NCBI GenBank assembly: GCA_965216025.1 | Contig: CBDCEX010000015.1 | Coordinates: forward strand, 7,063 to 71,062 | Source of the DNA: Dehalococcoidia bacterium | GTDB lineage: Bacteria > Chloroflexota > Dehalococcoidia > Lucifugimonadales > UBA3495 | Reading direction: 5' to 3' | Length of the DNA stretch: 64,000 bases | In this document: positions 1-49,404 of the stretch, in pieces | Numbering within the stretch: position 1 is the stretch's first letter | How the letters are laid out: every line of letters begins with the position of its first letter | Position numbers and translations under genes: made by a program | The notes under the pieces: model-generated | The model's input: the letters and a program-made list of their open reading frames with translations, nothing else | Database searches by the model: none | What the model was told of the DNA's origin: nothing

Positions 1-1097
1 CGGAAACGATCACAAACAATAACCCTTGGCCTTCCCCATTCCTCTTGTATCGCGGCCCACACTTGCGCCACTGTAGGCACCTGTAGCCCCTCAGCAAGGC
101 GTAGAAGGCCAGAGTCCACCAACTTCCTGTAGGTGTTCGGGCTTACCCTATCGCGGCGTTCCTGCGCCGCCACGTCCGGCACACCCGGCGCAATGGCCAA
201 CGCTTCGGTGCGGCCCGATGGGAAGATGGCAACCGCAGCACTCCAACTGCGATTTTGGCCAAGGTCCAGGCCAACCAGCGGCCTACCGTCCCGCTCTGGC
301 ACCTCCCGCGCGCAAACCTGCTGCCAATCCTCTACCGTTAAAAGCATGGCGGCAGAATCAGCGGAAGGCAGGTTAAGGCGGAAGGATAGGAACCTAGCTT
401 TCAACCTTGTATCCCGCCATGCTTCGGCCCGTTCCTCTTTTAGCTTGTCCAGGAATTCCGAGCTTATCGCGGTCAAGGGGTTGCACCGCTTTATTTCTCT
501 CAGGTCTGCCCACTTGTCGGGCTTGCCAGTAAGCGATTGAACGTAGGTTTTGCCGCGCGAACCATCCGCTACCAGGTCGTGCCACCATCCATTTAGCGCC
601 GGTGCCAACGTGCCAATGAAAATCGCTTTCATTGGGCTTCCAGGTTTTCCGAGTGACGTAAGGATGGCGTTGGCCATCAACTCGCCCCCAACTACCTCCC
701 AACTTCCGGGTTCGTCTGCCACTAAAATTCTTGTGTTTACGATGCCCATTGCCGACTTACCGTTTGAGCTGATAACGCGTAGCTTCGTGGAAGATGCCTT
801 GTGAAGGATCGCCAGCCTTGTCACGCTGTCATTGAAACGGTAATCAGTGTTATCAACACCGCCCAACGCCGCAACCACGAACCTAAAGGCAAGCCTAGCC
901 TGTTCTATGCTACTGGCGCATAACAAGTATTCAGTACCAGGATAATGCAGCGGGTCGCCAGGTGTCATTCCGCGTGTGAGGATATGTGCTGCAAGAAAAG
1001 TTTTGCCGTTGCCTCTGGGCAAACTGAGACAGGCAACATCCACACCCGGAGCCAGCGCCCGCTTCAAAAATCGCTTCTGAAATGGCAGCAGGTCCAT
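1..1097 (-). CDS. phage terminase large subunit-like protein (element 1; 3' end lies beyond window edge)
   Basis: Reverse-strand frame is open from ATG 1097..1095 to position 1; it is missing from the ORF track because it is open at the edge. Hand translation: MDLLPFQKRFLKRAL..LSLPRGNGKTFLAAHIL (P-loop-like), ..NTRILVADEPGSWE (Walker B-like), ..GLDLGQNRSWSAAV (RNaseH-like nuclease start). Clear paralog of 9211..10743. Confidence 0.75.
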   Translation of the reverse strand, partial: MDLLPFQKRFLKRALAPGVDVACLSLPRGNGKTFLAAHILTRGMTPGDPLHYPGTEYLLCASSIEQARLAFRFVVAALGGVDNTDYRFNDSVTRLAILHKASSTKLRVISSNGKSAMGIVNTRILVADEPGSWEVVGGELMANAILTSLGKPGSPMKAIFIGTLAPALNGWWHDLVADGSRGKTYVQSLTGKPDKWADLREIKRCNPLTAISSEFLDKLKEERAEAWRDTRLKARFLSFRLNLPSADSAAMLLTVEDWQQVCAREVPERDGRPLVGLDLGQNRSWSAAVAIFPSGRTEALAIAPGVPDVAAQERRDRVSPNTYRKLVDSGLLRLAEGLQVPTVAQVWAAIQEEWGRPRVIVCDRF

Positions 1098-1156
1098 CAA
1101 AACACCTCTAACACTGAATAGCCCCACCTACGCCGATATACCCACCCAACCATCAT

Positions 1157-1390
1157 TTAACAGGGTTCCCTTGATTCATGATACTTAATATCATGATTTA
1201 GCCTAAGCACACGGTAACGGGTATAGGCATCTTGAGCGCCGCCGCCCTTGCTCCTGATTGCATCAAAGCACCTATCGCACACGCGCCATAGGACCGTGTT
1301 ACATCCATTACAACCCACCGCATTATTACCAAAGTCTGGGATTGGCTGCCCGCAGAAATCGCATACCGCCTCTTGCTTGTCTTGTGCCAT
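1157..1390 (-). CDS. small Cys-rich (zinc-ribbon-like) protein, element 1
   Basis: 77-aa ORF with CDFCG..CNGCN..CDRC cysteine pairs. Sits between the ATPase and terminase, like the small ORFs of element 2. Confidence 0.45.
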   Translation of the reverse strand: MAQDKQEAVCDFCGQPIPDFGNNAVGCNGCNTVLWRVCDRCFDAIRSKGGGAQDAYTRYRVLRLNHDIKYHESREPC

Positions 1391-1457
1391 TGGTCCACCT
1401 CCAACTATCCTATCTTCCCATTGTGCTGATTATATTTGTATCTGAAACGTCATTGTG

Positions 1458-1547
1458 TCTGTGTCCCCTTATAAGGGGGGGACACGGAACACGTTATAAC
1501 GCTGTGTGTCTGGGACACGCTGAGACACGTTGGGACACGGGACACGT
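1458..1547. repeat. iteron-like array, candidate replication origin of element 1
   Basis: Palindrome GTGTCCCC-TTATAA-GGGGGGACAC (1458-1484). GGGACAC(G) or close variants at 1478, 1512, 1522 (GAGACAC), 1532 and 1539, plus GGAACACG at 1487. Lies immediately 3' of the ATPase gene 1554..2828. Confidence 0.55.
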
Positions 1548-1553
1548 TGGCAT

Positions 1554-2828
1554 TTAATCTCCACCTTCTGCAACGTCTATTCCCTCCGGTGTGGCGAAAT
1601 ATAACCACGCCTTACCAGTCTTATATCGGTCCACTAATCCAGCTTTCATCAAATCCTCTAGGGCTATATCTGCTGTCTTGCCCTTGTGTTTAACCAGTGA
1701 CCTAACAGCCCGACTACCCGTTACGCCTTCACTTCCCATCTTGGCTATCTCAAAGAGTAGGCTATCGGCAACTTGGGCAGCGTCAATATCCTCTTTCTCA
1801 GGTGGGGTTATCTGATAGGCCAGCACCCCCTCAACATAGGTAGCGACGATGTTGCAGATAGGCTTATTCGGGCTAACCATTAGCTGTCCAGCCCTATCCT
1901 TGTGGTTGACCAATAGCAGCTTCCCACATTCCAGTTGATTCCAAGGTGTGCCAGTAACGAAGATAGCAGCACCCGTCATCTTTGACCGCTTATGCGTACT
2001 CCCAATAGCCCCTAGCGGCCTTTCCTCTTTACGCTTGGGAACATGGTCCAGCAGCAGCAGGGTAGCGCCTATGGATTCCCAAGGCTTGCAGAATTTATCG
2101 AACCAAGGCTTGACCGCGCCGCCGTCACTCGGACAGCCCGCAGATTCGCAAGAGTCTATTACTACCAACCCAGGCCGTTCACCTTTCATTAACCACGCTT
2201 GGGCATAGGGTAGGATGTTGATTTCTTCCTCAGTTTCATCTTCAAGGAAGCTGTCATTGACGAACCGCAAGGCGGGGTTCTCAATTAGATCATCAGCTCC
2301 AAGTGCTGCCAACCTGGTAGCAAGGGTAGCTTGCCTATCCTCAAAATCCCACCATAGGACGTTGGAGCCATTACGGACAGCACTAATAGCCGCCATGATC
2401 GCAACCCAAGTTTTGCCAACGCCAGGCTCGCCAAATACGCTATTGAGCTTGGATTCGTAAAGGATGGTGCGCCCATCATCACGAACCATAAGAGAAGGTA
2501 GGATAGGCGGGTCGGTAAGGGTTACAGGCTGTGCCATGCTGTCGAATGTTCCAGCCATTGCCGCCAGGGTAGCTTTCCGTTCCCTTTCGGAGTAGGTGAA
2601 GTCTAGGCGGTCCTGGTCGCCTTCAAACATAGCCGCGATGGTTTCGGGCTCCAGGTCGTCAATGGTCCAGGCTTGCTCAGGTAAGGCTTGGCCAACTGTG
2701 AGATACCTTTTGTTGTACTCTTGGCAGTCAACGCATGGGCAATCCTCATCGTGGAGAGACCCACCAATGAAAAGCCCTTCGTCGGTTTGACTAAGTAGGA
2801 TGCTTTGGTTTATATTTGTGGCGTTCAT
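1554..2828 (-). CDS. RecA-fold (AAA_25/RepA-like) replication ATPase with N-terminal Cys cluster and C-terminal wHTH-like tail
   Basis: 424-aa ORF. Walker A FGEPGVGKTW, Walker B LVVIDSCES, LLLLDHVPKRK and NHKDRAGQ motifs typical of RecA-family AAA_25 proteins. N-terminal DEDCPCVDCQ. About 45% identical by eye to 7432..8352. Confidence 0.7.
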   Translation of the reverse strand: MNATNINQSILLSQTDEGLFIGGSLHDEDCPCVDCQEYNKRYLTVGQALPEQAWTIDDLEPETIAAMFEGDQDRLDFTYSERERKATLAAMAGTFDSMAQPVTLTDPPILPSLMVRDDGRTILYESKLNSVFGEPGVGKTWVAIMAAISAVRNGSNVLWWDFEDRQATLATRLAALGADDLIENPALRFVNDSFLEDETEEEINILPYAQAWLMKGERPGLVVIDSCESAGCPSDGGAVKPWFDKFCKPWESIGATLLLLDHVPKRKEERPLGAIGSTHKRSKMTGAAIFVTGTPWNQLECGKLLLVNHKDRAGQLMVSPNKPICNIVATYVEGVLAYQITPPEKEDIDAAQVADSLLFEIAKMGSEGVTGSRAVRSLVKHKGKTADIALEDLMKAGLVDRYKTGKAWLYFATPEGIDVAEGGD

Positions 2829-2886
2829 TATCTCCTCAGCGTTAGATTGCCCGCCGGCTTGGACGAATCGGCGGGTTTTCTTTTGT

Positions 2887-3102
2887 TTATCTGCATTTCA
2901 GTTGCTTCCATCCATCCTCCCGTTGGTGTCTTAGCAACCGGCCAGTGTGGTCATTTTGGCGAGTCCTATTCATCCTGGATACGCAATATTCCCCAACTCC
3001 CACACCGCACGTTGGGCAGGGTCGTGGGTATTTCTCCAACAGTTCCAATAGCCGCCTTGCTTTTGTTAGTGGCAACATCGTATTCCAAGCCATCAATTCC
3101 AC
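2887..3102 (-). CDS. small zinc-ribbon-like protein
   Basis: 71-aa ORF with CPTCG..EYC. Overlaps the upstream ORF by 10 nt, an operon-like arrangement. Confidence 0.35.
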   Translation of the reverse strand: MELMAWNTMLPLTKARRLLELLEKYPRPCPTCGVGVGEYCVSRMNRTRQNDHTGRLLRHQREDGWKQLKCR

Positions 3103-3410
3103 CCCAGCTTTTCAGATTCTCCGGTCAGTAACTCCCGCGCCAGGTCACGGCTAAGGCCAGGGTGCCAACCATCCCGTTCCATGCGCTCCCTGGTCTTGAC
3201 TTCCACCAACTCCCGCACCTTGTCGGCAACGTATTTCTTTTGCATACCCGCCGCTGTTGCCATTTGGCATATTGCCGCCGAGAAGGTCAGCCCTTCCTCT
3301 TGCACCACGGCGTTGACTGCCGCCAGTGTTACCGGGTCCACCCCTACTAAGATTTTTACCATTTCAACTTTGCTCCTACGCCGTTGCTTCACTGCCATAA
3401 ATACCTCCAA
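3093..3410 (-). CDS. hypothetical (possible regulatory) protein, first gene of the leftward operon of element 1
   Basis: 105-aa ORF divergent from the integrase. No motif recognised. Confidence 0.4.
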   Translation of the reverse strand: MEVFMAVKQRRRSKVEMVKILVGVDPVTLAAVNAVVQEEGLTFSAAICQMATAAGMQKKYVADKVRELVEVKTRERMERDGWHPGLSRDLARELLTGESEKLGWN

Positions 3411-3491
3411 AATTGGGATATAACTAATTCTATCAGGCTAAAATGTCCTATGCCAAACAAAACGCCAGACACCAAAAATGTCTATGCGACT

Positions 3492-3641
3492 GGTGGTATC
3501 AGGTGGTAAGGTACTGTCCTATGTACCTACACAGATACAACTACCGGATACCTCCAGAGTACTTTTTACCACATTTTCCATTGACTTCCGTTACACTGCG
3601 GTCTATACTCCCTTTAACCCGGTGGTAAATCGCTGGTGGTA
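3492..3641. promoter_or_regulatory. four GGTGGTA(A/T) direct repeats in the divergent int/regulator intergenic region
   Basis: GGTGGTA at 3492, 3502, 3621 and 3635. The last pair lies just upstream of the int RBS (AAGGGGG) and ATG 3655. Candidate operator or arm-type sites. Confidence 0.3.
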
Positions 3642-3654
3642 AAAGGGGGTAAAA

Positions 3655-4884
3655 ATGAGCAAGCTAACCAATGCAGCAATCAAGGGACTGGACAAGCCGG
3701 GGCGGTATGGGGACGGCGGCGGGCTATACTTGAACGTCGCGCCCGGAGGTTCAAAGTCTTGGATTCAACGAATCAGGATTGACGGCAACCGGACTGACAA
3801 GGGATTGGGCGGGTATCCCGCCATGACTCTTACCAAAGCACGGCAACAGGCAGACGCTAACCGCATAGTGGTTAAAGCGGGCCGCAATCCCTGGACTGAA
3901 AAGCGCATGGCCTCACCCGCGCTGGCTGCACCAGTGGCCGACATTCCGACACTACGGGAAGCCACATACACAGTCCACAACCTCAATGCACCTTCACGTC
4001 CGGCGAGTGCTGCCCGATGGATTGGGCAGCTGGAAAAGCACATCCTTGCCAGTGTTGGCGATACTCCCATTGACGAATTCACCCGCGCGAACTTGGCAGA
4101 GATCATCGGGCCGTTGCGCCAATCAAACCACGAAACATCGCGGAAGGTTAAGCAGGCGCTCCATGACGTTTTCCGCTGGAGCGTAGCAATGGGGCATATC
4201 GCAACTAACCCTGCTGATGATGCCTTGGAAATCCTGTTGCCCAAGGTCCGGAAGGAAGTGACTCACCATCTGGCTTTGCCCCATGGGGAAGTCCGGCGGG
4301 CAGTCCACATGGTCAAGTCCAGTGAGGCACGGCTGGCGACACGTCTACTGCTCCAGTTCATTATCCTAACGGCTGCCCGTGCTGGTGAGGCAAGGCTGTC
4401 AACGTGGGGTGAAATTGACCTGGACGGCGCAACGTGGACGGTCCCGGCTTCCCGAATGAAAAACAACCGCGAACACGTCGTACCTTTGTCGGCGCAAGCC
4501 GCCGGAATACTGAGGCGGGCCAAAGAACTTTACCGCGATCCCGACGAAGAATTTGAATGGACGGTAGATGTTCAACCGGACTGGTGGATATTCCCGAATC
4601 CCAACAACGGCAAGCCTATCTCCGATGCCCTGGCGCAACGGCTGGACAAAGACGGCATACCTTCCACAATGCACGGCTTCAGAACTTCGTTCAGGACGTG
4701 GGCGGCTGAGACCTATGGCGATGATTGGGATACGGCGGCTGAAATGTGCCTCTCTCACTACCCTACCGATGCGGTAGTCAAGGCATACCAGCGGAGCGGC
4801 TTGGTGGATAAGCGCCGGGGACTGTTGGCAGCGTGGGCAGACTACGTTGACCCTGTAGCTTCCGTTGAACCGCCGTTCTCATAG
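3655..4884 (+). CDS. int: tyrosine recombinase, P4-type integrase
   Basis: 409 aa. N-terminal GLYLNVAPGGSKSWIQRIRIDG (DUF4102-type arm-binding domain). C-terminal catalytic region ARAGEA..., HGFRTSFRTWAAE, LSHYPTDAVVKAYQR (catalytic Tyr). Confidence 0.9.
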   Translation: MSKLTNAAIKGLDKPGRYGDGGGLYLNVAPGGSKSWIQRIRIDGNRTDKGLGGYPAMTLTKARQQADANRIVVKAGRNPWTEKRMASPALAAPVADIPTLREATYTVHNLNAPSRPASAARWIGQLEKHILASVGDTPIDEFTRANLAEIIGPLRQSNHETSRKVKQALHDVFRWSVAMGHIATNPADDALEILLPKVRKEVTHHLALPHGEVRRAVHMVKSSEARLATRLLLQFIILTAARAGEARLSTWGEIDLDGATWTVPASRMKNNREHVVPLSAQAAGILRRAKELYRDPDEEFEWTVDVQPDWWIFPNPNNGKPISDALAQRLDKDGIPSTMHGFRTSFRTWAAETYGDDWDTAAEMCLSHYPTDAVVKAYQRSGLVDKRRGLLAAWADYVDPVASVEPPFS

Positions 4885-4893
4885 AATAGAGGA

Positions 4894-4917
4894 AGTCCAG
4901 TTTTCCTTTTCTGGACT
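4894..4917 (+). terminator. hairpin after int
   Basis: AGTCCAG-N10-CTGGACT located 10 nt after the int stop. Confidence 0.4.
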
Positions 4918-5004
4918 ACCTCCTCTAAGGCCCTACTGTGCCCGCAGTGGGGCCTTTACTGTTGCAACCTTATTGTAGCAAGCTAATTTATGGAGGGTTG
5001 AACA

Positions 5005-5226
5005 ATGGTAAGGCACACGGTAGCACTCCGCCCGGTGGCGTTTCAGAAGCTACAGAACTTGACCGAGGAGCTGAGCAGGTAAGCGGGCTGGAAACTGTCT
5101 ATGGCGCAGGTGGTGGAAATGGCGATTGATCAAGTCGAAAGGATAGAAGCCATGAAAGACGAAGACGACATAGTTGGCTACAGGGAGAAAGAAGAGCAGC
5201 AAAGGAAAAGCTATCAAGGGCACTAG
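5005..5226 (+). pseudogene. ribbon-helix-helix (CopG/Arc-like) protein with an in-frame TAA
   Basis: GGAGGG RBS 7 nt before ATG 5005. MVRHTVALRPVAFQKLQNLTEELSR, then TAA (5080-5082), then AGWKLSMAQVVEMAIDQVERIE..., all in one frame. Beta-strand/helix/helix pattern of RHH proteins. Confidence 0.45.
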
Positions 5227-5664
5227 AACAGAAAGCCGGGCGCACCAACGCCCGGCAATCTAAACCAATAAGGAGCATCATGGGTAGTATAACGCCGAAG
5301 TGCATCTATTGTCAATTGGTGCGGAAATCGTTTGGCGGCGATCCCTGCCAATGCCCCAAAGCCATCGCAGCGCTGGGTCCGGTGCTGCTCTGCGAAGAAT
5401 GTAACCAACCGACCTATATGGGAAACGGTAACCCCCGGACTGAAATCTACGGCGGCGGTCCAGCGTGGGAACATTGCAATTGTGCGGGAGCTAAAGCCAG
5501 GGTTGAGGCCAAGAACGCCGCACAAGCCAAGCAATGGGCAGAATTTGAGGCCAAGAAAAAGGAAGAATCTGACAAAGAGGATGCTGCACGGCGCGCAGAC
5601 TGGGCCAAGATGACGCGGCAGTTTGCCAAGGAACAGGCCATCGTCAATGATGATGCGGGCCTAG

Positions 5665-7116
5665 TACTACAACGACGAGTTGTCTGGTAGGATGGCTGGA
5701 CAGATGATGTTGGGTGGTTTGAGTGATGGATGCGGCGAGCTTCGAGCGGGTCTACGACAGCCTTCAGGAATTCCACGCCTTCTTTGCGGCCTCCTTCGGC
5801 CGCAAGCAGTGGCGGGATCACAGCGGGAATTACCTTCAGGCGCTGCTGGTGCAGGACCAGGAGCGGCGCAACGCCGAGAATCTCTCGGAATCGGTGGGCA
5901 TCTCGGCCCGGGCGATGCAGCGCTTTCTCACCGAGGCCCGGTGGTCCGATGAGACAGTCATAGGGCGGTTGCAGGAATACTTGGCCCCCAGGCTGGGACA
6001 CCCGGAGGCGGTGTGGGTGTTCGATGGCAGCGACTTCCCCAAGCAGGGCAGGAAATCGGCGGGAGTGGCCCGGCAGTACTGCGGCAGGCTGGGCAAGGTG
6101 GCCAACTGCCAGGGTGGGATGTTCCTGGCCTACGTCAGCCCGCTGGGCCGGGCGTTGGTGGACAAGCGGCTGTATCTGCCCAAGAGTTGGACCTCCGACC
6201 AGGACCGGTGTGCTGCGGCGGGTGTGCCGGAGGACCGGCGGAACTACCGGTCAAAGACGGAGTTGGCCCTGGAGATGCTGGAGCGGGTCCTGGAGTTGGG
6301 CTACCTCAGGGCCGAGTGGGTTGCCGGAGACGACGCCTTCGGGATGTCGCCGACCTTCCGGGAGGGACTGGCGGCCCTGGGGATGCGCTACGTGCTGGAC
6401 GTTCCGGGCGGCACTACGGTCTGGCCCTTGGACCCGGCTTGGACCAGTCCGGAATATCCGGGGTTCGGCCGCCCCCGCAAACCCAAGCTGCGGCCTGGGC
6501 AGCGGCGGACCATGGAGCAGCGCGGTGATGAACTGCCGGATGAGGCTTGGCGGGAGATAACGGTGGCCCAGGGAAGCCAGGGGCCGCGCACCTACCGGTT
6601 CAGTGCCCAGCGGGTGCGGGCCACCAGGAGGCGCAAGCCCGGCGAGGAACTGTGGGCCGTCTGGCGCCGGAACCTGGACGGCAGCGAGCCCCGCTACTAC
6701 CTGTCCAACGCTCCCGAGGGCACAACCTTGGAGACTCTGGCCTACGTGGGTGGGTCCAGGTGGCGCATTGAAACGGAGTTCGAGACTGAGAAGGGTGACG
6801 TGGGGCTGGACGAATACGAGACCCGCAGCTGGGCAGGGTGGCATCACCACATAGCCATGTGCCTGCTGGGTGGGGCGTTCCTGCTGAGCCTGCAGCAGGA
6901 TTGGGGGGAAAAAGATGCCCCGGATCACGAGGCCACAGGTGTACCGGGTGGTGCGGGAGATGCTGCCCCGGGAGCAGTTCGGGCCCGATCAATTGCTGTT
7001 GTGGCTGGAGGATACGCAGCTACGCAACGAACGGGCTCGCCGTTCCCACGAGAGACGCCGCTCCACCCGCCGCGAAAGCAGGATGGAGCCGCCACCTTAA
7101 ACCCGTCGTTGTAGTA
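5665..7116 (+). mobile_element. IS701-family insertion sequence
   Basis: Terminal inverted repeats (G)TACTACAACGACG at 5665 and 7104-7116. CTAG on both sides (5661-5664 and 7117-7120). Carries a DDE transposase. Confidence 0.85.
5723..7114 (+). CDS. IS701-family DDE transposase (C-terminal ~60 aa out of frame)
   Basis: RWRIETEFETEKGDVGLDEYETRSWAGWHHHIAM is typical of the IS701/IS4 superfamily. After the G6A5 run at ~6903-6913 the family-like tail KKMPRITRPQVYRVVREML..RNERARRSHERRR continues in the +1 frame (ORF 6915..7100). Confidence 0.8.
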   Translation: MMDAASFERVYDSLQEFHAFFAASFGRKQWRDHSGNYLQALLVQDQERRNAENLSESVGISARAMQRFLTEARWSDETVIGRLQEYLAPRLGHPEAVWVFDGSDFPKQGRKSAGVARQYCGRLGKVANCQGGMFLAYVSPLGRALVDKRLYLPKSWTSDQDRCAAAGVPEDRRNYRSKTELALEMLERVLELGYLRAEWVAGDDAFGMSPTFREGLAALGMRYVLDVPGGTTVWPLDPAWTSPEYPGFGRPRKPKLRPGQRRTMEQRGDELPDEAWREITVAQGSQGPRTYRFSAQRVRATRRRKPGEELWAVWRRNLDGSEPRYYLSNAPEGTTLETLAYVGGSRWRIETEFETEKGDVGLDEYETRSWAGWHHHIAMCLLGGAFLLSLQQDWGEKDAPDHEATGVPGGAGDAAPGAVRARSIAVVAGGYAATQRTGSPFPRETPLHPPRKQDGAATLNPSL

Positions 7117-7120
7117 CTAG

Positions 7121-7290
7121 AAGTCTGGCCGGAAAGCCATTGGCCGGGTTTTGCGCTACGCGAAGCAGACGTATTCAAGACTTATATGGCATGGTGGTGC
7201 ATGTAATACGTTGCAACACCCACTATGCCATCGATAATCGACGTTAAGAAAACGCTGGCCTAGGGGGAATCGAGGTTTCCGGCCAGACTT
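7121..7290. mobile_element. 170-bp MITE-like element, copy 1
   Basis: Perfect 19-bp terminal inverted repeat CTAGAAGTCTGGCCGGAAA, counted with the flanking CTAG. Flanked by CTAG at 7117-7120 and 7291-7294. Second copy at 42788..42958. Confidence 0.6.
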
Positions 7291-8356
7291 CTAGCAGGCC
7301 GTGAGCGGCTCCTTAAGGGCCGTGAACTCTCCCGCAGGGAACAACGCCAAGACGACTACGACACCCCACCCCAAGACGACCACACGACCGCCGAGGGCCA
7401 GACCTTTACCGACTTCACGAAGGAAGTAACATTGCTGGGTGTGGACCGACTCCCAGCGGCGTTTGTGCGCTCGGACTGGGCAACGTTGGCATACGAGGGC
7501 AAGTTTAATACCATCTTCGGGGAGGTTGGGTCAGGCAAGACGTGGGTTGCGCTAATGATGGCTATCGAGCGCCTACACGCTGGCCGACACGTGATTTGGT
7601 GGGATACCGAGGACCAGCCATCCACTCTAGCAAGACGCCTCCAAGTCCTGCGGGCTACCGACTTGATCGGTCACCCTGCCTTGAAATGGACTAACGGCGA
7701 CTTTCAAGACAACCCGGCGATAATGGCCGAGGCGCTAGAAGGGCTGGGCAGCGGCAACGGGCCGGGGCTGGTGGTGATTGATTCTGCAACGTCGTTCGGC
7801 TGCCCCAGCGACGGCGGCAACGTAGCCGCTTGGCTGAAAGCCTTTATTGACCCGTGGGAGAACGCGGGCCATTCCGTGGAACTCTTGGATCACGTACCGA
7901 AGCAAAGGAAAGATAGGCCGCGTGGTGGAATAGGCAGCCAGGCTAAGTTGGCCAGAGTAGACGGGTCAGCGCTCTACCTTCACGGCAACCCTTGGAACGC
8001 CACCGAGGGCGGGTATATCCACATGCAAATTCATAAGGATAGGCATGGGCAGCTACCCGCTACACTGATGGGAGCAGCAGCCACTATTACCGCTGAATGG
8101 GATGGGCCTACCCTTGACTATACAGTGGGCCTACCCAATGCTAAGGCTGAGGCTGAGAACTTGGAAGATGAACTGATGGACGCATTGGATCAGGCAGGCC
8201 CAGATGGGGTGCGGGGTGGCCGTGCTGTCCGCGATCTGCTGAAGGGCAAGCGGGCCAAGGATATAGACGCTGCCCGTGAAGAACTGCTGAGCTCTGGTAT
8301 GATTGAGCGGGTGAAAGAGGGTAAGGCATATGTCTATCGATTCGTTGGATGAGTTG

Positions 8357-8475
8357 ACGTTCATTGACGTTTGGGACCACTTGGGACACGCAAACGTCAA
8401 TGAACGTTTGCTGTTTCACCCCTAAGGGGTGAAACACAAACAACAACACGTACAGATACGATTAGGGCGGGACAC
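8357..8475. repeat. palindromes plus GGGAC(C)AC motifs 3' of ATPase 2; candidate origin or terminator region of element 2
   Basis: Perfect 17-bp inverted repeat ACGTTCATTGACGTTTG (8357-8373 / 8391-8407). Its loop holds GGGACCAC and GGGACACG. Second palindrome GTTTCACCC-CTAA-GGGGTGAAAC (8413-8435). GGGACAC again at 8469. Confidence 0.5.
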
Positions 8476-8514
8476 GGTAATCAAGGTGAAAATTGAAGGA
8501 TAGGAGATGATGGA

Positions 8515-8829
8515 ATGGCAGAAGAGCGAAACGGCGTAGTCTTGTTAGAGGACGTGGAACGCAACGGCCAGATCGCGGTGACGGGCTGGCGGGTATTCTT
8601 TTGGCTCTCTGGTGGACAGGATGATATGCGCGAGGCATTAATTAAAGCTGAGTTTAAAGCTGAGTCTAAGGAGCTGACTGAAAGGCGGGTAGGGGCCTAT
8701 GTCCAGCCTTTCCACGTTGAACAGCCTACCGCCTGGGGCGTGAGGCCGTACTACTATCTGCCAAACAAATCCCAAGATGAAACGAGCGAAGCCCTGCTGA
8801 GCGCCGGGTTTTCCGTGTGCTTTCCGTGA
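8515..8829 (+). CDS. hypothetical protein, element 2
   Basis: 104-aa ORF with AGGAG upstream. No motif recognised. Confidence 0.4.
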   Translation: MAEERNGVVLLEDVERNGQIAVTGWRVFFWLSGGQDDMREALIKAEFKAESKELTERRVGAYVQPFHVEQPTAWGVRPYYYLPNKSQDETSEALLSAGFSVCFP

Positions 8830-8952
8830 TTCACAAAGGGAACCCTGCTGTAGGATCGTGGTGGGGCGAGGGTGATATGGCACCATCGGATTCCGCTAGG
8901 GTGGCGTATAGCGCAGAGGGAGTGACACGTTACGCAGAGAGGAGAGAAGGAC

Positions 8953-9207
8953 ATGAAGTACCTGCTGAATAACAACACGGTCAACGAGAAACTGACGAAC
9001 GGGAGCGTGGACTTGGAGAAAGCCGCGACGGGGCGGGATGAGGTGCTAAGTGCGCTCGATGCAATCATGCCATGCCTACCCGGCTCTGCACCGCTCAAAG
9101 TTGAGTACGGCAAGATTAAGAGTGCTGCTAGGTGCGTTCGTATCGCGAACGGTCGTCTTAGTGAGATTCTAAAACTGCTCCCGGAGGAAGCCTTGAGGAA
9201 GCGGTAG
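8953..9207 (+). CDS. hypothetical protein immediately upstream of terminase (position suggests small terminase subunit)
   Basis: 84-aa ORF ending 4 nt before the terminase start. The function is guessed from position only. Confidence 0.35.
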   Translation: MKYLLNNNTVNEKLTNGSVDLEKAATGRDEVLSALDAIMPCLPGSAPLKVEYGKIKSAARCVRIANGRLSEILKLLPEEALRKR

Positions 9208-9210
9208 GTT

Positions 9211-10743
9211 TTGATTGTGAAGGAGTTGATACCGAGTCTGCAATCCGCACCAGTCGGCGACGGGGACCTTATCGGCCAGCCGTTCAAGGTGATGCCGTAT
9301 CAGCGCAAGTTCCTGGACGGGGCATTCAAGTCTGGCATCCTCCGGGCCGGTTTGACTTTGGCGAGAGGCGGCGGAAAAAGCGGATTGGCCTCGGCGTTGG
9401 CGCTGGACAGCATTCGACCGGCTGGGGCACTTCACGTCGTGGGTGGCGAGACGGTGCTTGTGGCCAGCAGCTTCGCCCAGGCAAGGATCGTTTTCGAGGC
9501 GGTGAAGACATCTCTGGAGCTGATGGGGGAGGATGGCGAGTACCGGATCAGGGATCAGCAAAACCTTGCGGACATTCAGCACCGGGAAACGAAGGCACGG
9601 CTGAGGGTGGCCGGTTCTGATAATCGAAGGGCCCATGGTTGGCGGTTCAACCTGGCCATCGTCGACGAACCTGCACAGCACGGGCCACGGGGAGAGATAC
9701 TCGCGGCGGCGATCAGGACGGCGTTGGGTAAGCGCAAGGATGCGAGGGTTATCTACATCGGCACCAGGCCGTCAAGCGACGCCCACTTCTTCGCGCGGCT
9801 GCTGGACGAGAACGACCCCAGCGTGTTCTCCCTGGTGTACGCCGCTGATGACGCTGATGACCCCTTCTCCAAGAAGACGTGGGCCAAGGCGAACCCTGCG
9901 CTGCGGTACGGGATGCCCAACATAGAAGTCCTGCGAGCTGAGGCGCGGATGGCGAAGAGGGACCCGGCGGAGCTGGCGACGTTCCGCAGCCTACGACTGA
10001 ATCAGGGAACCAGCGAACCAGCGAAGTTGAGAGCCAGCACTTGATAGACTCACTTGTCTGGAAGTCCATCGAAACCGAGGAACTGCCGCCGGCGGAGGGG
10101 CCAATGAGCCTTGGGATTGATCTCGGAGGAACGGCTGCCTTCTGTGCGGCGGCGGCGTGGTGGCCTCAAACTCACAGATTAGAAGGGTTTGTCGCTTGCG
10201 GCACCAGTCCACCACTGAGCGAACGGGCGCTGGCCGATGGCGTCAGCGGCGTGTATGAGGCGATGCGCGACCGCAACGAGCTGGTGCAGTTGGGCAACCG
10301 TGTGGTGCCGGTCGGTGTGTTTCTGCAAGAGGCCGTCAACCGCTTTGGCAAACCGCAGGCTATCAGCGCCGATAGGTGGCGCGCCGGTGAGTTGGAAGAC
10401 GGAGTTAAAGACGTGGGCCTGAACCTGCCTGAACCTGCCTGAACCCACCTGGCGCGGGCAGGGATGGCGCGATGGTGCTGTTGACGTGAGGGCATTCCGA
10501 TCTGCGGTACTGGAAGGCAAGGTAGCGGCGCCGGTGTCCATGGCGATGCGGGCGGCACTGTCTGAGGCCAAGACGGTAGCGGACAGTTCGGCGAATGAGA
10601 AACTGGCGAAGTCCGGTGAAGGACAACATCGTCGCCGTGGACGTGATGACCTTGCCGCTGCCATCGTCTTGGCGATTGCTGAAGGCACCAGACGGGAGGC
10701 AGACAAGCCTGTCTCCCGTGGGCGGTATCGGGGCAGAATCTAA
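9211..10743 (+). pseudogene. phage terminase large subunit, broken into three frames by two short tandem duplications
   Basis: The three pieces are 9211..10044, 10041..10442 and 10486..10743. Motifs: PYQRKFL..LARGGGKSGL (P-loop), NLAIVDEPAQ (Walker B), GIDLGGTAAF (nuclease). GAACCAGC x2 at 10007-10022 and GAACCTGCCT x2 at 10421-10440. Removing one copy of each restores a single frame. Confidence 0.8.
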
Positions 10744-10763
10744 TTTGGGAAAGGAGATATAAC

Positions 10764-11216
10764 ATGCCGATTACAGGCTCAGTAAAAACCACCGGCGGCA
10801 AGAAATTGGAAGCTATCTTGAAAAAGGCAGAACAGCCCCGGCGCAAGCAGGTCAAGGTGGGCTTCTTCAGCACCGCCAAGTATGACGACGGGACGCCCGT
10901 TGCGGCGAATGCGGCGATTCAGGAATTTGGCCTCGGTGCCAGCATCCCGGAGCGGCCCTTCTTCCGGCAATCCATCGCCATCATAGAGCAGGAACTGCCG
11001 GCGAAGCTGGCGAAGATCATTGACCCGGCGACGATGGAGGTATCAGCCGCCGACGCTGCCAAGATTGGGGAATACGCCAAGGAAACGATTCAGGGTCGCA
11101 TACGCGATTTCAAGGACCCGCCGAACGCGGAGGGCACCATCCTGCAAAAGGGGTCAGACTCGCCCCTTCAGGACACCGACAAGATGCTGAACAGCGTGGA
11201 CTACGAAACCGAGTAG
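10764..11216 (+). CDS. phage head-tail/morphogenesis protein (HK97 gp10 / Mu gpG-like, tentative)
   Basis: 150 aa. ..IPERPFFRQS.. and ..SPLQDTDKMLNSV.. resemble the RPF and DTG-L motifs of those families. Sits in the phage structural module. Confidence 0.35.
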   Translation: MPITGSVKTTGGKKLEAILKKAEQPRRKQVKVGFFSTAKYDDGTPVAANAAIQEFGLGASIPERPFFRQSIAIIEQELPAKLAKIIDPATMEVSAADAAKIGEYAKETIQGRIRDFKDPPNAEGTILQKGSDSPLQDTDKMLNSVDYETE

Positions 11217-11530
11217 TGGGGCACGGTCGGCGAGTACCGCCTGGTTGGGCGCGGTTCAGGGCGATGGTCCTGGAACGCGCCCATTATCGTTGTGAGTGTT
11301 CGGGGTGCGGGCATTGAGGAGAAGGGTGTGGGCGACCGAGCAAGCTTGAGGCCGCGCACATCGTCAGTGTGTACAAGGCACCGGAGCGCGAGATGGACCC
11401 GACGAACGTAATGGCGAAGTGCGTCAAATGCCACCTATCTCAGACACTCGCCGAACGGCGAGGGGACACACCGCAAAGCACCGCATGGCGGCATTTGGTG
11501 AACGACCTCCTATGTAATAAGATGGAATAA
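11216..11530 (+). pseudogene. HNH endonuclease, frameshifted
   Basis: Frame 1: ..RAHYRCECSGCGH then stop (11315). Frame 2 continues ..KLEAAHIVSVYKAPEREMDPTNVMAKCVKCHLSQT.. These are the C-x-C..H..N..C-x-x-H HNH elements split over two frames. Confidence 0.6.
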
Positions 11531-11569
11531 ATATCATCAACTAATGGTTATATTACGGTAGGGGTTGTT

Positions 11570-12841
11570 ATGACACCATTGCAGCGTATTCGGATTGAAC
11601 AAAGCACACACCGCGAGAAGATCAATGCGTTGCTGGCGGTGGAAACTGAACTGGACGATACCCAGCGGGGCGAACTCGCCGGCCTCACCACCAGGATGCA
11701 GAACCTGGAGCTTGAGTACCGGGCCGCAGAGATGGCCGACGGCCCCATGGAAATTGCGGATGACGCGCCGGTGATCTCCAAGGACCAACGCCAGCGCCTT
11801 GAACTGCGGAGCGCCGCCCGGTTGACCAACTACCTGCTCTCCCATGCCCAGGGCAAGATGCCCAGCGGTGCGGAACTGGAATTGCAGCAGGAAGCGCACG
11901 TCAACGGAATTCCGGTGGAACTGTTCGACGTTGCAACCCGTGAAACCCGCGCCGACTCACTGGCGCCCACCACCGGCGTCGGCGTAAACGTGGACCCGGT
12001 TCGCCCGATGCTCTATGCCCGCGCCGTGCTGCCCCGGCTGGGGGTAGCGATGCCCAGGGTGGAGAACGGCAGTTACAGCACCATGACCGTCAGCACCGGC
12101 TTGACCGCTGCTGCCACCACCGCAGGGAGCGCATTCACTGCTACGGCGGCGGTGCTGACTCCGCAGACCACCCGCAACCACCGCGTAACGGGCCGGCTGT
12201 CTCTGAGGGTTGAAGACATTCAACACATCGGCGTCGACAACTTCGAAAGCATCCTTCGCCAGAATTTGATGCTGGTGATGTCTGACCAATTGGACGCGCT
12301 GGGACTGACCGGCGACGGCACCGACCCCAACCCCGAAGGGCTGTATCCGCAGTTGACGGACCCGACCGATCCTTCGGACACCGTTACCTGGCCTCTGTTT
12401 GTTGCGGCGATGGCCGGCGGTATTGACGGTGGGCCATGGGCCGAAACCATGCGGGAGGTAACGCTCCTTGTGAACCCGGAAACCATGCGGCTGGCTGAAT
12501 CTACGTTCCAGGCTGGCACAGGGAATCAGGCCACCCCTGGCGACATCAGCGCCGCCGCCTACCTCCGGGCTAACAGCGCGGGATTCTTCAGCAGCCGCAG
12601 AATGCCAGACACCGACAGCAACATAGCGGGCTGCATCATCTACCGGGCTGGCACCATGGGCCTGGACGGGGTGGACGCAGTTCGGACCGCCGTATGCCCG
12701 ATGTGGAATGAAATCAGCATTGATGACATCTACTCCGATTCGGCCAGCGGCGTCCACCACTACACGATGCACTCATTGATTGGCTCTGTCTTGATCGAGC
12801 AACCCAACGCCTACAGCCGCGTTGACCTGAAGGTTAGCTAA
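11570..12841 (+). CDS. HK97-fold major capsid protein with N-terminal coiled-coil (delta/scaffold-like) region
   Basis: 423 aa. The N-terminal ~90 aa are charged and helical. The remainder resembles the phage major capsid family (PF05065-type). Located next to the prohead protease. Confidence 0.75.
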   Translation: MTPLQRIRIEQSTHREKINALLAVETELDDTQRGELAGLTTRMQNLELEYRAAEMADGPMEIADDAPVISKDQRQRLELRSAARLTNYLLSHAQGKMPSGAELELQQEAHVNGIPVELFDVATRETRADSLAPTTGVGVNVDPVRPMLYARAVLPRLGVAMPRVENGSYSTMTVSTGLTAAATTAGSAFTATAAVLTPQTTRNHRVTGRLSLRVEDIQHIGVDNFESILRQNLMLVMSDQLDALGLTGDGTDPNPEGLYPQLTDPTDPSDTVTWPLFVAAMAGGIDGGPWAETMREVTLLVNPETMRLAESTFQAGTGNQATPGDISAAAYLRANSAGFFSSRRMPDTDSNIAGCIIYRAGTMGLDGVDAVRTAVCPMWNEISIDDIYSDSASGVHHYTMHSLIGSVLIEQPNAYSRVDLKVS

Positions 12842-12850
12842 AGGGACGCC

Positions 12851-13135
12851 ATGGCACAGCAGGCACCATACGAGGTTACGGACACCCCCACGGACATCGC
12901 CAGTGCCTACGGGCCGGGGCGATACCTGGCGCAACTGTCCAGGTTCATACAGACGCCGCACGGTGTCCTATTCGCCACCAGCGCGTCCGCCCCAACGGAT
13001 GACGATGCCTATTTCCGGTGCAACCTGTCGGAACCGTTGTTTGAATTCTCTAGCGTGTCGGGCCTGCCGACGTGGGTAAAGACCTCGGCACCGGGGCTAA
13101 CCTTCACCCTGGCGGTGGCGCAGATTGGCAACTGA
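12851..13135 (+). CDS. hypothetical protein between capsid and protease
   Basis: 94-aa ORF, tightly packed (9 nt after the capsid stop; overlaps the protease start). Confidence 0.4.
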   Translation: MAQQAPYEVTDTPTDIASAYGPGRYLAQLSRFIQTPHGVLFATSASAPTDDDAYFRCNLSEPLFEFSSVSGLPTWVKTSAPGLTFTLAVAQIGN

Positions 13136-13700
13136 ATATCCTGTCTTTGAAGAGCAGCTTGAAATCCGGCAAGAAGGCGGCCGGCCGGTCCTGACCGCCA
13201 CCTTTCCGCTGAACCGGACCGCCACCACCAGCAACGTGGGGCGTGTTCGGAAAGAACGGTTTGCCAGCGGTTCCATGTCCTGGCAGACACGGGAATTTGC
13301 CAAGTTGCAGGACGAAATGGCGACCGTCCTATCTCGTGGCGTTGACGACTTCATGGCCCAACGGCGTGTCGCTGAACTTGACGAACAGTTGGAGCGGAGG
13401 AACACCCACCTGCTGGTAGGCCACTCATACGACCATGCCATTGCCGACACGAAGAGCGGCAACCTGGCGATACAGCACACCGATGAAGCTGTGTTCCTTC
13501 GGGCTGAACTGCCACCGGAGGGAGAGCAACCGAGTTGGGTTAAGGACGCAGTTCTAGCGGTGCGTGGGCGTCAACTTCGGGGTATCAGCCCTGGATTCCA
13601 AGTAACGCCGCAGGGCCGGCAGCGCCTGGTGCCGGAGGATGGGCCGGGTGATTCCCTCGTGCGGGAAATCCAAGATTCGACGGTGTACGAGTACTCCCTA
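13125..13700 (+). pseudogene. HK97-family prohead protease (S78/U35-like), 3' end cut off by IS630 copy A
   Basis: LLVGHSYDHAIA (His), RGISPGFQV (Ser), VYEYSL. The native sequence stops at the IS end at 13700/13701; the ORF tail NQSQGGNYIGQ is IS sequence. Confidence 0.7.
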
Positions 13701-14857
13701 AACCAAAGCCAAGGTGGGAACTACATTGGGCAGTGATGGCAAAGGCACGGCAGGTGTAAAGATCAAAGCATCGGCTCGGGCCTGTAACCGGGTTGGGCAG
13801 CGATGTTTCACTTCATCCTTACGATGAATTAGCCCGCCGAAGAATTGATTCATCTTCTCTTGGACTTTGGCTTTTGTTCCCAGGCATTCGTTGGCCGTGA
13901 CCTCTTCTCTGGCCCAGTCCCAGACGGCTTCGTCGGCGTTGAAGTCTGGGCTGTAGGCCGGTAAGGCCACCAACCTCAGATGCAAGTCAGGAGTGGTCAA
14001 ATAGCTGCGAATCGCTGCTCCTCGGTGGGCTGGCCCATTGTCCCAGATTACTACCAGAGGTCCAGGATGGTTTGCTCTTAGCTGCTGTAAAAAGGCGGTG
14101 GAGGTCTCGGCATTGCTGTTTCCAGCTATTTCCATGGCTTCCACCTCCCCAGTCTCCAGACAAACTCCCGAGTAGTAGCAGGCCTTCTCTCCCCACCGAG
14201 GACTGGTGGAGTCCACCAGCGCTGCCTCTCCCTTGAGTACCCATTTGCCTCGCAGGTCGGCATCGGCCCGAAAGTGGGCTTCATCCACGAAGAAGATCTT
14301 GGCTCCATTCTCTTGGGCCTCCTCTCGGATTTGGCTGTACTGGAGGACGAAGGCTTTCCGTTCTTCATCCTTGGCTTTCAGGAGGCGTTTCTTGGGTCGC
14401 TTCAGCACGAAGCCCAACCGATGGAGGTAGTTCAAGCAACTGCTCCGACTCAGCCCCAGGTCAAAGCTCTGCTTGAGAAATTGCCTTACTACTTTCCAGT
14501 TCCAGTTGGACAATTCAATCCCCGCCTCCCCAGGCGGATTTTGCATCGCAGACTTCAGTTGGTTCTGTTGACCTCGGTTCAAGACGGGGGGGAACCCCCA
14601 GTCTGCTCAAAGACCAAACCTTGGGCCCCGCCTTGGCGAAAGTTGTCCTGCCAGTTTCCGATGGTATGAGGCTCTCTCTCCAAAGCCTCAGCCACTTGAG
14701 TGGCCGACCACCCTTGGGCCAACAACCATAGCCCATGCCATCGCTCTCGCTCCCGAGGTGTTGGCGCCCGATACATCCTTTCCCGTAAGTCGCCTACATC
14801 CAGTTGCCACCGTTCTAGGAGTTGCACTATGTCTGTCATCCCTTCCCCCACCGCCAA
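13698..14857 (-). CDS. IS630-family transposase (orfA 14579..14857 HTH, orfB 13698..14582 DDE; +1 shift needed at a C7 run)
   Basis: orfA ends ..FEQTGGSPPS-stop. orfB begins LNRGQQNQLK.. in the +1 frame; one extra C would give a typical IS630 GG-PP-L junction. The stop TAG is made from the TA duplication plus a flanking G. Confidence 0.85.
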
Positions 14858-14929
14858 TCGACTTCTTTTACAGAATATCGCAACTCCTCTTCGGGTTCGC
14901 TTTATGTAGGTTTCACCTTAGATTTGGTT
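13701..14929 (-). mobile_element. IS630-family IS, type 1, copy A (1229 bp)
   Basis: Ends AACCAAAGCCAAGGTGGGAACTACAT / ATGTAGGTTTCACCTTAGATTTGGTT. TA on both sides within C-TA..TA-G. The flanks are unrelated genes (phage protease | dppC-like permease). Confidence 0.9.
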
Positions 14930-14931
14930 TA

Positions 14932-15359
14932 GTCTGGTCAACGTCATGATTGCGGTGTCGGTAGTTTGGTGGACCGGGCACGCTCGGGTGATTCGGGGCA
15001 TGGTGCTATCGGCGCGACAACGAGAGTATGTGGTAGCCGCCCGGGCCATCGGTGCCAGCGACCTCAGGATCGTGGGATATCACATTGCTCGCAATATCCT
15101 GGGTCCCTTCGTGGTGCTGGCCAGCCTGGATATGGGGTGGATTCTTCTAGGCATAGCCGGTCTGAACTTCCTGGGTTTGGGTGCCCAGCCACCGACACCA
15201 GAGTGGGGAGCAATACTTAACGACTCGCGGTCTTATTTGCAGACGGCGCCCCGGCTTTTGCTTTTCCCAGGCACTGCTATCTTCCTTTTGGTACTGGGAT
15301 TTAACCTTTTAGGGGATGGCCTGAGAGATGTACTGGATCCTACTACTTACCGGCGCTGA
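14932..15359 (+). pseudogene. oligopeptide/dipeptide ABC transporter permease (DppC/OppC-like), C-terminal fragment
   Basis: ..VVWWTGHARVIRGMVLSARQREYVVAARAIGASDLRIV..LGLGAQPPTPEWG.. is the C-terminal half of a binding-protein-dependent permease. The frame is open right up to the IS end at 14931; the N-terminal half is missing. Confidence 0.75.
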
Positions 15360-16017
15360 AAATCTCTTCTTTTTAGACCACCGGGAAGCGGGGCGCCGTA
15401 GGCTCAAATTATTGAGTGGTGGAGATACTGCCTGAAGAGGTTGATGATGAGCGGGGGCAGCAAATGGCTAATAGGCTTCGGCATTGCCCTTGCTGTGCTG
15501 ATCGCATATTTCCTGGGTTGAAGGAGGAGACGCCTCCGATGAGGATGATGCACGGAGGCTCAGCCACTACCTACTCTTTCCGAGCCTCACTATACAGGCT
15601 GCCGCAGCCAAGATTACCACGTAGTCGACGTTCCGGAATACTCCCGCTTCGATCGGGTTTACTTCGAGTCTGGGCGACCGTTGGCAGCGGATGCCGTGTG
15701 TAAGGAGACTCCCGTCAGAGAGGTGGGGCTAAAAAGGGGTCGTTAGTTTACAGGCGGGGTCGACGGGAAATCGGGTAGGGGTAGCCGCTGAGATGGCTAC
15801 CCCATTAATTTGCTAGGCGAGTCGGTAGAGGAGTTGGTCGGATGGCGCTCCAAAACGGCAGGTCGAGCTGGCGTAGCTAGATTACCGAAAGATCTAGGGT
15901 CTCCACAAGGACTTGTATATTAAACGGGTAGAATAGGCCCATGGGGGTCGGGGAGTCGACGGCCAGTGTCAGTCAACGCTCCACTTGGGGTTATGGCCGG
16001 CCTCGGCTTGCCAATGA

Positions 16018-33540: not shown

Positions 33541-33543
33541 TAG
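32384..33543 (+). CDS. IS630-family transposase, copy C (orfA 32384..32662, orfB 32659..33543)
   Basis: orfB differs from copy A at 7 of 294 residues (hand count). Same C7 run. Confidence 0.85.
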
Positions 33544-49400: not shown

Positions 49401-49404
49401 TGGC

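Follow-up and report, generated by a model that had tools for sequence, protein, structure and literature searches.

The first 13.7 kb of the 64,000-nucleotide stretch of Dehalococcoidia DNA analysed here (the window; contig CBDCEX010000015.1, positions 7,063 to 71,062) encode an integrase and two sets of ATPase, terminase and phage head genes, raising the question of what kind of mobile element they represent. An initial annotation had read them as copies of a compact satellite that resembles phage-inducible chromosomal islands that form capsids (cf-PICIs) more than it does a prophage. The core of that idea is supported by the continuation of one copy on a sibling contig, by the attachment (att) repeats that bound an element with nearly the same head genes, and by 11 relatives with defined ends. 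We conclude that the region probably holds two diverged members, element 1 (E1) and element 2 (E2), of one family of integrative, capsid-forming, tail-less elements of ~10 kb, inserted in tandem at the 3' end of a tRNA-Arg(CCT) gene and following a cf-PICI-like life cycle. The family is large and almost unannotated, and its members carry their own phage head and DNA-packaging motor without tail or lysis genes.

The leftward-reading operon of E1 runs off the edge of the window. Its continuation was read from a 9,291-bp metagenome contig (L001) that was found by exact look-up of the E1 ATPase and is 99.97% identical to window positions 1-3284. Past the window edge, L001 encodes, in order, the rest of the large terminase (TerL; 475 amino acids [aa] in full), an HNH gene interrupted by an in-frame TGA, a capsid protein of 408 aa, a 93-aa open reading frame (ORF), an S78 protease (1.9e-12), proteins of 103 and 119 aa, a 349-aa portal protein, a small reverse-strand ORF and a second P4-type integrase that is cut at the contig end. 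The full-length TerL matches phrog_9 (terminase large subunit, 4.6e-41), and the portal protein matches PF04860 (3.4e-9) and phrog_12 (1.2e-10); a profile built from 20 portal homologues matches solved portals (9i8c, 1.1e-7; RcGTA portal, 8e-6). The profile of the E1-type capsid had no match among PDB sequences. Its AlphaFold (AF2) model (pLDDT 75, 36-sequence alignment) matched the HK97-fold capsids of R4C, RcGTA, T5, HK97 and the cf-PICI EcCI2 with E values of 1e-9 to 2e-11, and the first ~150 residues of the model are helical and delta-domain-like. Sequence profiles of the 103-aa and 119-aa families found nothing in the PDB, and a fold search with the 103-aa model gave no significant matches. 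The initial annotation had reported no portal gene, and had named portal, tail and lysis genes just outside the window as the mark of an ordinary prophage. The portal gene of E1 does lie just outside the window, as the last gene of the head cassette, and no tail or lysis genes were found in the continuation on L001.

We next consider the ends of these elements. An element on another contig (L037), whose head cassette is 99% identical to that of E1, is bounded by 20-bp att repeats 10.2 kb apart (5628-15836), beyond which host genes follow. In total, 11 elements from several phyla lie between direct repeats that stem from tRNA 3' ends and are 9.7-12.0 kb apart, and in 10 of the 11 the distance is 9.7-10.5 kb; the element of 12.0 kb (L022) holds a copy of an insertion sequence (IS). 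One relative (L030) has a 55-bp terminal overlap that converts its 9,849-bp contig into a circle of 9,794 bp, with 1463x coverage. No integrase was detected in L030, which may be an episomal or non-integrating variant. This circle comes from a Gammaproteobacteria bin (COS4_bin_15); it encodes a 694-aa protein with an adaptor-like domain at its N-terminus and has an HK97-gp10-like gene before the portal gene. Many capsid homologues lie on contigs of 7-10 kb, but we dropped these as complete genomes because many have low-coverage '_3x_l' names, which we read as linear long-read assemblies. The size argument therefore uses the att repeats and the L030 circle.

Scans of accessory ORFs against PHROG and Pfam, together with the att-bounded gene maps, revealed no tail or lysis families, and did reveal HNH, protease, primase and Neck1 families. 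The pooled PHROG scan of 115 ORFs was swamped by HNH matches; families were taken from the 25 most frequent, and many small ORFs had no family. The head genes are also isolated from those of known phages. Searches with tblastn against 50,697 GenBank phage genomes yielded nothing for capsid or portal at E<=1e-3, and the matches to TerL were all of 25.5% identity or less. IMG/VR contained four relatives only. TerL, capsid, portal and the small head proteins had no match in NCBIfam, and the protease match fell below the curated cut-off. A literature search found no description of this element family; it turned up papers on cf-PICIs, virion-encapsidated integrative mobile elements (VEIMEs), MiniFlayer and 'twilight' mini-viruses. 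Identity with VEIMEs was rejected because VEIMEs encode no capsid genes, and membership of the encapsulin-like 'twilight' clade was rejected because that clade is without terminase or portal.

The integrase gene within the window (intB, 3655-4884, plus strand; Arm-DNA-bind_3 5e-18, with Phage_int_M and Phage_integrase domains) had been assigned to E1. Exact look-up of this P4-type tyrosine integrase recovered three short contigs from other samples (L039-L041), and the IS701-like element found at 5665-7116 of the window is absent from all three. On L039, the integrase gene is immediately preceded by the 3' end of tRNA-Arg(CCT) (...GAGTCCCTCCAGGGGTAC/TTTTTACC); on L040, ~40 nt precede the stretch homologous to the window. 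In the window, this tRNA 3' end is replaced by a degenerate att core, ggataCCTCCAGaGTAC (3533-3550), which marks the right end of E1 and the left end of E2. The core at the junction was discerned only by comparison with L039: ARAGORN found no tRNA in the window, and ten tRNAs from relatives, used as BLAST queries, matched nothing at the E1/E2 junction. This core, as CTCCAGGGGTAC, also bounds three relatives (L020, L022 and L050). The first of these is E1-like and 10.3 kb long, with its integrase gene convergent after the portal gene, and this E1-type architecture recurs in L025 and L037. L050 is an intact E2-type element of 10.5 kb at the same att site as E2, in the order tRNA-Arg(CCT), integrase, VapE, TerL, a 149-aa ORF in the position of Neck1, capsid, protease, a 110-aa protein, portal and att. 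Because copies of E2 in other samples abut tRNA-Arg(CCT), and because the core bounds relatives, the integrase at 3655-4884 belongs to E2, with the integrase of E1 itself lying outside the window. E1 and E2 are thus independent tandem insertions at a single tRNA-Arg(CCT) att site, and not the head-to-head copies that had been proposed, an impression created by the window edge and IS damage. Their opposite reading directions reflect two architectures that set the head cassette in opposite orientations relative to the integrase. In another sample it is E2 that adjoins the tRNA, which makes E1 the later of the two insertions; E1 is largely intact, and E2, the earlier one, is decaying in place. 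Repeats of GGTGGTAA(A) lie directly upstream of the integrase start (3490-3509 and 3620-3652 of the window; 15727-15770 of L037), are conserved between the window and L037, and may be integrase arm-type sites or operators.

The E1-type capsid has 416 homologues in a word index, almost all of them metagenomic, and the E2-type capsid has 342 further homologues. A capsid profile search, counted as representatives at 50% identity, returned 3,657 sequences at E<=1e-3, 2,559 at 1e-10 and 1,289 at 1e-30. When one genome per species was scanned, 35 loci were found, the closest of which are in Dehalococcoidia/Chloroflexota (80% and 54% identity). Labels of the host metagenome-assembled genomes (MAGs) span Chloroflexota/Dehalococcoidia, Alpha- and Gammaproteobacteria, Vicinamibacterales, Bryobacterales, Thermodesulfobacteriota, Syntrophobacterales and Binatia. 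Mapping with tblastn revealed a conserved cassette of TerL, HNH in some cases, capsid, protease or two ORFs without known family, the 103-aa and 119-aa proteins, and portal, with portal present in all intact relatives. HNH is intact in 7 of the 11 relatives clustered, and in L052. Neck1 was found in L014 (4e-23). The P4-type integrase gene lies upstream and reads in the direction of the cassette, or lies downstream and converges on it, in most cases beside a tRNA gene. A typical element combines a P4-type integrase, small regulators of the ribbon-helix-helix (RHH), Zn-binding or AlpA type, an exchangeable replication module, and a conserved head and packaging cassette consisting of TerL, usually HNH, a capsid of the HK97 fold whose N-terminal region resembles a delta domain, a prohead protease, a putative head-tail adaptor and head-completion protein, Neck1, and portal last. 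In many relatives (L009, L014, L020, L022, L024 and L025), two conserved ORFs of ~145 and ~170 aa replace the pair formed by the 93-aa ORF and the S78 protease, and in L021 the two are fused; representatives from L009 had no Pfam match, and these ORFs could be a divergent protease/scaffold pair.

The left-hand modules vary. The replication module differs between members: some have an AAA_25 ATPase and iterons, some VapE and some a D5-type primase-helicase. AlpA is encoded by one relative (L048); profile searches found no AlpA match among the small proteins of E1 and E2, which have RHH-like and Zn-binding proteins instead. L037 pairs its E1-like head cassette with VapE, a different integrase and a tRNA-Glu site, indicating that modules are exchanged between elements. 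With a cassette 99% identical to that of E1, the exchange in L037 looks recent. A cI-like repressor gene (helix-turn-helix and S24 peptidase domains) lies just outside the att boundary of L037, at 3845-4477.

Within the window, the genes of E1 are all on the minus strand. From its distal end, these are the first 365 aa of TerL (3-1097; 100% identical to L001 over these 365 aa); a 77-aa protein with four CxxC motifs resembling a Zn ribbon, directly upstream of TerL and without a Pfam or PHROG family (1157-1390), which is an unproven candidate for a small-terminase analogue; the 424-aa RecA-fold AAA_25 replication ATPase (1554-2828; PF13481, 5e-14); a 71-aa phage Zn-binding, DNA-binding protein (2887-3102; PF24623 Phage_zn_bind_8, 1.7e-7); and, as the first gene of the leftward operon, a 105-aa regulator (3093-3410) with an RHH-like pattern by eye and no family match, the region of which is 90% identical to the L037 element. 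An iteron cluster at 1458-1549 comprises four GGGACACG sites inside 68 bp, with variants and an inverted copy, and is a putative origin for the AAA_25 ATPase; it is not common to L037, which shares the head cassette of E1 and has the VapE replication gene. The 64-kb window contains six GGGACACG sites, and all six are in the two intergenic regions directly after the ATPase genes, bearing out the iterons and palindromes that the initial annotation had noticed.

Profile searches likewise confirmed most of the earlier gene calls, namely the integrase, two AAA_25 ATPases, two TerL genes, capsid, S78 protease, HNH and Zn-binding proteins; failure of the terminase, capsid and protease calls had been named as grounds for abandoning the satellite reading, and these calls held. 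E1 and E2 appear to be homologous throughout, with identities of 43% for the ATPase, ~30% for TerL, ~30% for the protease and 25% over the full length of the capsid. The estimate of ~45% for both ATPases and terminases was too high for the terminases, and the two elements are further apart than it implied. No similarity could be detected between the 93-aa ORF of E1 and the 94-aa ORF of E2. E1 had been described as intact as far as the window extends, but the HNH gene outside the window (L001 3615-3900) contains a TGA within a 6-nt insertion, such that it reads LCRR*GCH (asterisk, stop) where intact relatives have LCRGCH. The same sequence is present in L037 and L038 (~9840). The TGA is therefore identical in three contigs from three samples, one of which has different replication and integration modules. 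An in-frame TGA lies inside the HNH catalytic motif in both E1 and E2. The E1-type gene may be split, read through, or a pseudogene that is tolerated.

E2 reads rightward and is dead, as had been claimed, through insertion of a miniature inverted-repeat transposable element (MITE) and an IS element in its ATPase gene, a nonsense codon in its RHH gene, two frameshifts in TerL, a nonsense codon in HNH and truncation by an IS630-family element. Its RHH gene (5005-5226, plus strand) has an in-frame TAA at 5080. By comparison with L039, the nonsense codons differ: the window reads SR*AGW (5080) and L039 reads SRQAG* (~1570), three codons later, and two different mutations in two populations suggest independent loss. 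The Zn-finger-AAA_25 replication gene (5280-8352, plus strand; AAA_25 1.1e-10), whose C-terminal ATPase part is at 7432-8352, is split by the MITE and the IS element, and deletion of 5665-7294 in silico restores one continuous Zn-finger-AAA_25 frame of ~480 aa. The insertions are an IS701-like element with a DDE_5 transposase (5665-7116, plus strand; PF13546, 1.2e-57) and a 178-bp MITE with 19-bp terminal inverted repeats (GAAGTCTGGCCGGAAAGCC...; 7117-7294), a second copy of which, 81% identical, is at 42784-42962. L039, whose E2 copy is without the IS, already has the MITE. The MITE supplies a new C-terminus and stop codon to the replication gene, and the IS701-like element sits exactly at the MITE edge, at a CTAG. 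Copies of the IS701-like transposase that are ~80% identical occur in Dehalococcoidia MAGs (L022 12706-14004; L036 4548-5874), and the copy in L022 is inside the satellite, between the homologues of the 103-aa and 119-aa proteins.

After the ATPase gene of E2, positions 8357-8476 contain 17-nt and 12-nt perfect inverted repeats, with the GGGACACG sites of E2 beside them, and GGGACAC(G) motifs, and form a putative origin. Further along the plus strand are two small ORFs of 104 and 84 aa upstream of TerL (8515-9207), without family match and with a possible small-terminase role, and a TerL pseudogene (9211-10695) with frameshifts near 10010 and 10430 and weak Terminase_6N and TerL_nuclease matches. 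In a tblastn search with the intact TerL of L021, which is 58% identical, this pseudogene maps to frames 1, 3 and 1. The next gene, for a 150-aa connector described earlier as gp10-like (10764-11216), is identified as a Neck1/tail-completion (HK97 gp10-like) gene by its match to phrog_222 (4e-37). It is followed by the HNH pseudogene (11216-11524; PF01844, 3e-4), with an in-frame TGA at 11315 and 80% identity to the intact HNH of L052; by the intact ORF of the 423-aa HK97-fold major capsid protein (11570-12841; weak PF05065 match); by a 94-aa accessory ORF between capsid and protease (12851-13135) that is absent from intact E2-type relatives; and by the S78 prohead protease gene (13125-13696; PF04586, 3.3e-5). 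The protease aligns to residues 3-191 of the 220-residue L052 protease, and its C-terminus is ~29 aa short because it is cut by the IS630-family element that ends E2 (13697-14932, minus strand; DDE_3, 1.1e-23). In the intact E2-type relatives L050 and L052, the distal genes are the 110-aa protein (with an 87-aa ORF in L052) and portal, followed by the distal att repeat. The portal end of E2 was thus deleted at the IS630 junction, at 13697. Past the IS630 element, the translation looks by eye like the C-terminus of a permease from a peptide ABC transporter.

These observations bear on alternative explanations of the locus. The damage to E2 makes it a pseudogene array, and the E1-type HNH gene carries a conserved in-frame stop, as would be expected if the family consisted of dead relics of phage heads with no present mobility. 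We consider this very unlikely, since most relatives have intact ORFs, members from different phyla agree in size and gene order, recombination has joined a 99%-identical head cassette to another integrase, replication module and tRNA site, E1 has inserted between the tRNA and E2 relative to other samples, and L030 is a circle at high coverage. Ordinary temperate HK97-like prophages, whose portal, tail and lysis genes would lie directly beyond the window edge or have been lost recently, are the least probable explanation and one that the data already contradict. Although the portal gene is indeed outside the window, and E2 is visibly degraded by IS elements, portal, a small ORF and then an integrase gene close the continuation of E1, the nearly identical cassette of L037 sits between att repeats 10.2 kb apart, the 11 bounded relatives from different phyla (9.7-12.0 kb) have no room for tails, and intact E2-type elements likewise end at portal.

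A further alternative is that the head genes form an autonomous tail-less transfer particle, or a domesticated head-only system resembling a gene transfer agent (GTA), which operates without a helper. We regard this as unlikely, if less so than the explanations above. It would account for a complete head and packaging set without tails, the nearest solved relatives of the portal and capsid include those of RcGTA, and the integrase-less 9.8-kb circle at very high coverage could be read in the same way. By contrast, the elements have integrase genes, att sites and replicons of their own, vary between strains and are found as tandem insertions. They also encode neck proteins (Neck1; 4e-37 in E2 and 4e-23 in L014), the known role of which is tail joining, and no adsorption or lysis function was detected. 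We therefore favour satellites that spread with tails borrowed from a helper phage, which is the most likely route by analogy with cf-PICIs.

We read the elements as a new, phylum-spanning lineage of capsid-forming phage satellites that would work like cf-PICIs, with their anatomy observed and the hijacking of tails proposed by analogy. The mechanism is modelled on cf-PICIs (PMC10085698; bioRxiv 10.1101/2025.02.11.637232) and on HK97-like assembly. Upon induction, an element would excise and then replicate from its own putative origin, with the AAA_25 ATPase predicted to initiate replication at the iterons. TerL, together with HNH where it is intact, would cut and package unit-length DNA of ~10 kb into a small capsid, which would assemble with the aid of the delta domain and mature through the S78 protease, as in HK97-like assembly. 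The adaptor, head-completion and Neck1 proteins would prepare the portal vertex for helper-phage tails, and a co-resident helper phage would supply tails and the lysis functions required for exit, as in cf-PICIs.

Several points weigh against this reading. No helper phage was identified. The structural genes of E1 were read from the sibling contig L001, and not from the contig of the window itself; exact look-ups with the 77-aa and 71-aa ORFs gave no match, and those with the ATPase and the integrase did not recover the window's contig. No small terminase (TerS) was recognised among nine small ORFs upstream of TerL by matches to PHROG or Pfam families, and the phrog_4581 'TerS' matches in the pooled scan are taken to be HNH proteins. 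The 103-aa 'adaptor' is named from its position and from non-significant fold matches (E 0.2-5) that are enriched for head-tail connectors, and the head-completion call for the 119-aa protein is weak (Phage_HCP, E 0.013, with 0.035 for a relative). Lastly, the in-frame TGA in the HNH gene of the E1-type cassette was present in 3 of 3 samples, and the interrupted gene may leave E1 non-autonomous for packaging, or defective.

Beyond this locus, we tentatively raise the possibility that the elements form a lineage of capsid-forming satellites that is independent and ancient, spans phyla, and is overlooked by present satellite models and annotation pipelines. The family has at least 1,289 capsid clusters at 50% identity, and BLAST against 50,697 phage genomes found no relative of its capsid or portal. 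If this were true, head-only elements that borrow tails would be general in the mobilome of largely uncultured phyla (Chloroflexota, Vicinamibacterales/Bryobacterales, Binatia), and not only in that of Proteobacteria and Firmicutes. If the elements are functional satellites, the capsid-forming strategy reaches far past Proteobacteria and Firmicutes into lineages with almost no cultured phages. HK97 has a T=7 capsid and a genome of 39.7 kb, and scaling with T^1.5 gives ~11 kb for T=3. We speculate that the conserved size of ~10 kb implies T=3 heads, the smallest DNA-packaging HK97 capsids known; the interest of the family would rise if an independent origin and a T=3 head were shown. The marker set of TerL, capsid and protease with portal last, within ~10 kb, can be used to find such elements and, via the neck proteins, their helper phages, and thousands of 'prophage fragments' in MAGs may have been misclassified. 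The locus itself captures, in one place, tandem capture at a tRNA, module exchange, and stepwise decay by MITE, IS and nonsense mutations.

The remainder of the window, from 15 to 64 kb, appears by eye, from ORF translations, to consist of host genes (ClpXP, trigger factor, FtsA/FtsZ and NrdR among them) and IS copies. Including the copy that ends E2, there are four IS630-family copies, which are 91-98% identical (13697-14932, 28278-29513, 32309-33544 and 47230-48465); together with the IS701-like element and the MITE, they indicate a heavy IS load in the genome. Domains D1-D4 of a group II intron match Rfam at 19755-20056 on the minus strand (138.6 and 64.1 bits). Short minus-strand ORFs at 49110-49806 resemble, by eye, the C-terminal part of a tyrosine recombinase (HxLKHSxxTHxL) and are possibly another decayed mobile element.

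Finally, we compared the elements with known systems. They resemble P4 satellites in their P4-type integrase (Arm-DNA-bind_3/Phage_int_M), in targeting tRNA genes and, in some relatives, in having D5/VapE primase-helicases; P4 is not known to encode a capsid, portal or terminase, and remodels the capsid of P2. The head module of RcGTA and that of roseophage R4C have small portals and capsids of the HK97 family that are among the best PDB matches, at identities of only 14-18%. RcGTA differs in being non-mobile, in having tail genes and in packaging random host DNA, whereas the family described here has integrases, att sites and a replication module, with tandem insertion and presence/absence variation. 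The presence of TerL and portal separates the elements from encapsulins, and they have no contiguous tail and lysis modules such as define a complete tailed prophage. The Streptomyces satellite MulchRoom has a tyrosine integrase and HNH alongside head genes (terminase subunits, portal, capsid and head-to-tail adaptor), and makes a small capsid that it combines with its helper's tail (PMC10690885). MulchRoom has no replication genes, has direct terminal repeats, and has head genes like those of known actinophage clusters (PMC10690885); the family described here, by contrast, has a replicon of its own, and BLAST found no relatives of its capsid or portal among GenBank phages.

The closest parallel is with cf-PICIs, such as EcCIEDL933 (PMC10085698; bioRxiv 10.1101/2025.02.11.637232). 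Several features differ. Our family measures 9.7-10.5 kb with ~12-15 genes and is thus smaller: the median cf-PICI has 14 kb and encodes 19 proteins, and EcCIEDL933, with its T=4 capsid, is 15.5 kb long; against the ~10-18 kb expected of a cf-PICI, 10 of the 11 bounded relatives are at the lower limit. The gene order TerL-(HNH)-capsid-protease-adaptor-connector-portal, with portal last, is unlike that of cf-PICIs, as is the lack of a recognisable TerS, which cf-PICIs would be expected to have, and the replication gene of E1 and E2 is an AAA_25 ATPase with iterons, not a primase. The hosts also differ, being mostly Chloroflexota, Vicinamibacterales/Bryobacterales, Thermodesulfobacteriota and Binatia, in addition to Proteobacteria. 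In the fold search, the solved cf-PICI capsid (9gyi) ranked 32nd at 12% identity, no closer than the capsids of HK97, T5 and GTAs or encapsulins. Like cf-PICIs, however, the elements combine an integrase with their own TerL, HK97-fold capsid, protease and portal, have no tail or lysis genes, integrate site-specifically into the chromosome, and exchange their left-hand modules. They also have putative regulation and replication modules, an HNH gene that is interrupted in both E1 and E2, and candidate head-tail joining proteins, of which Neck1 is clear. With site-specific integration, capsid and protease, portal, TerL, the absence of tail and lysis genes, and size all in agreement, the elements have most of the features by which cf-PICIs are recognised, and would be expected to work as cf-PICIs do.

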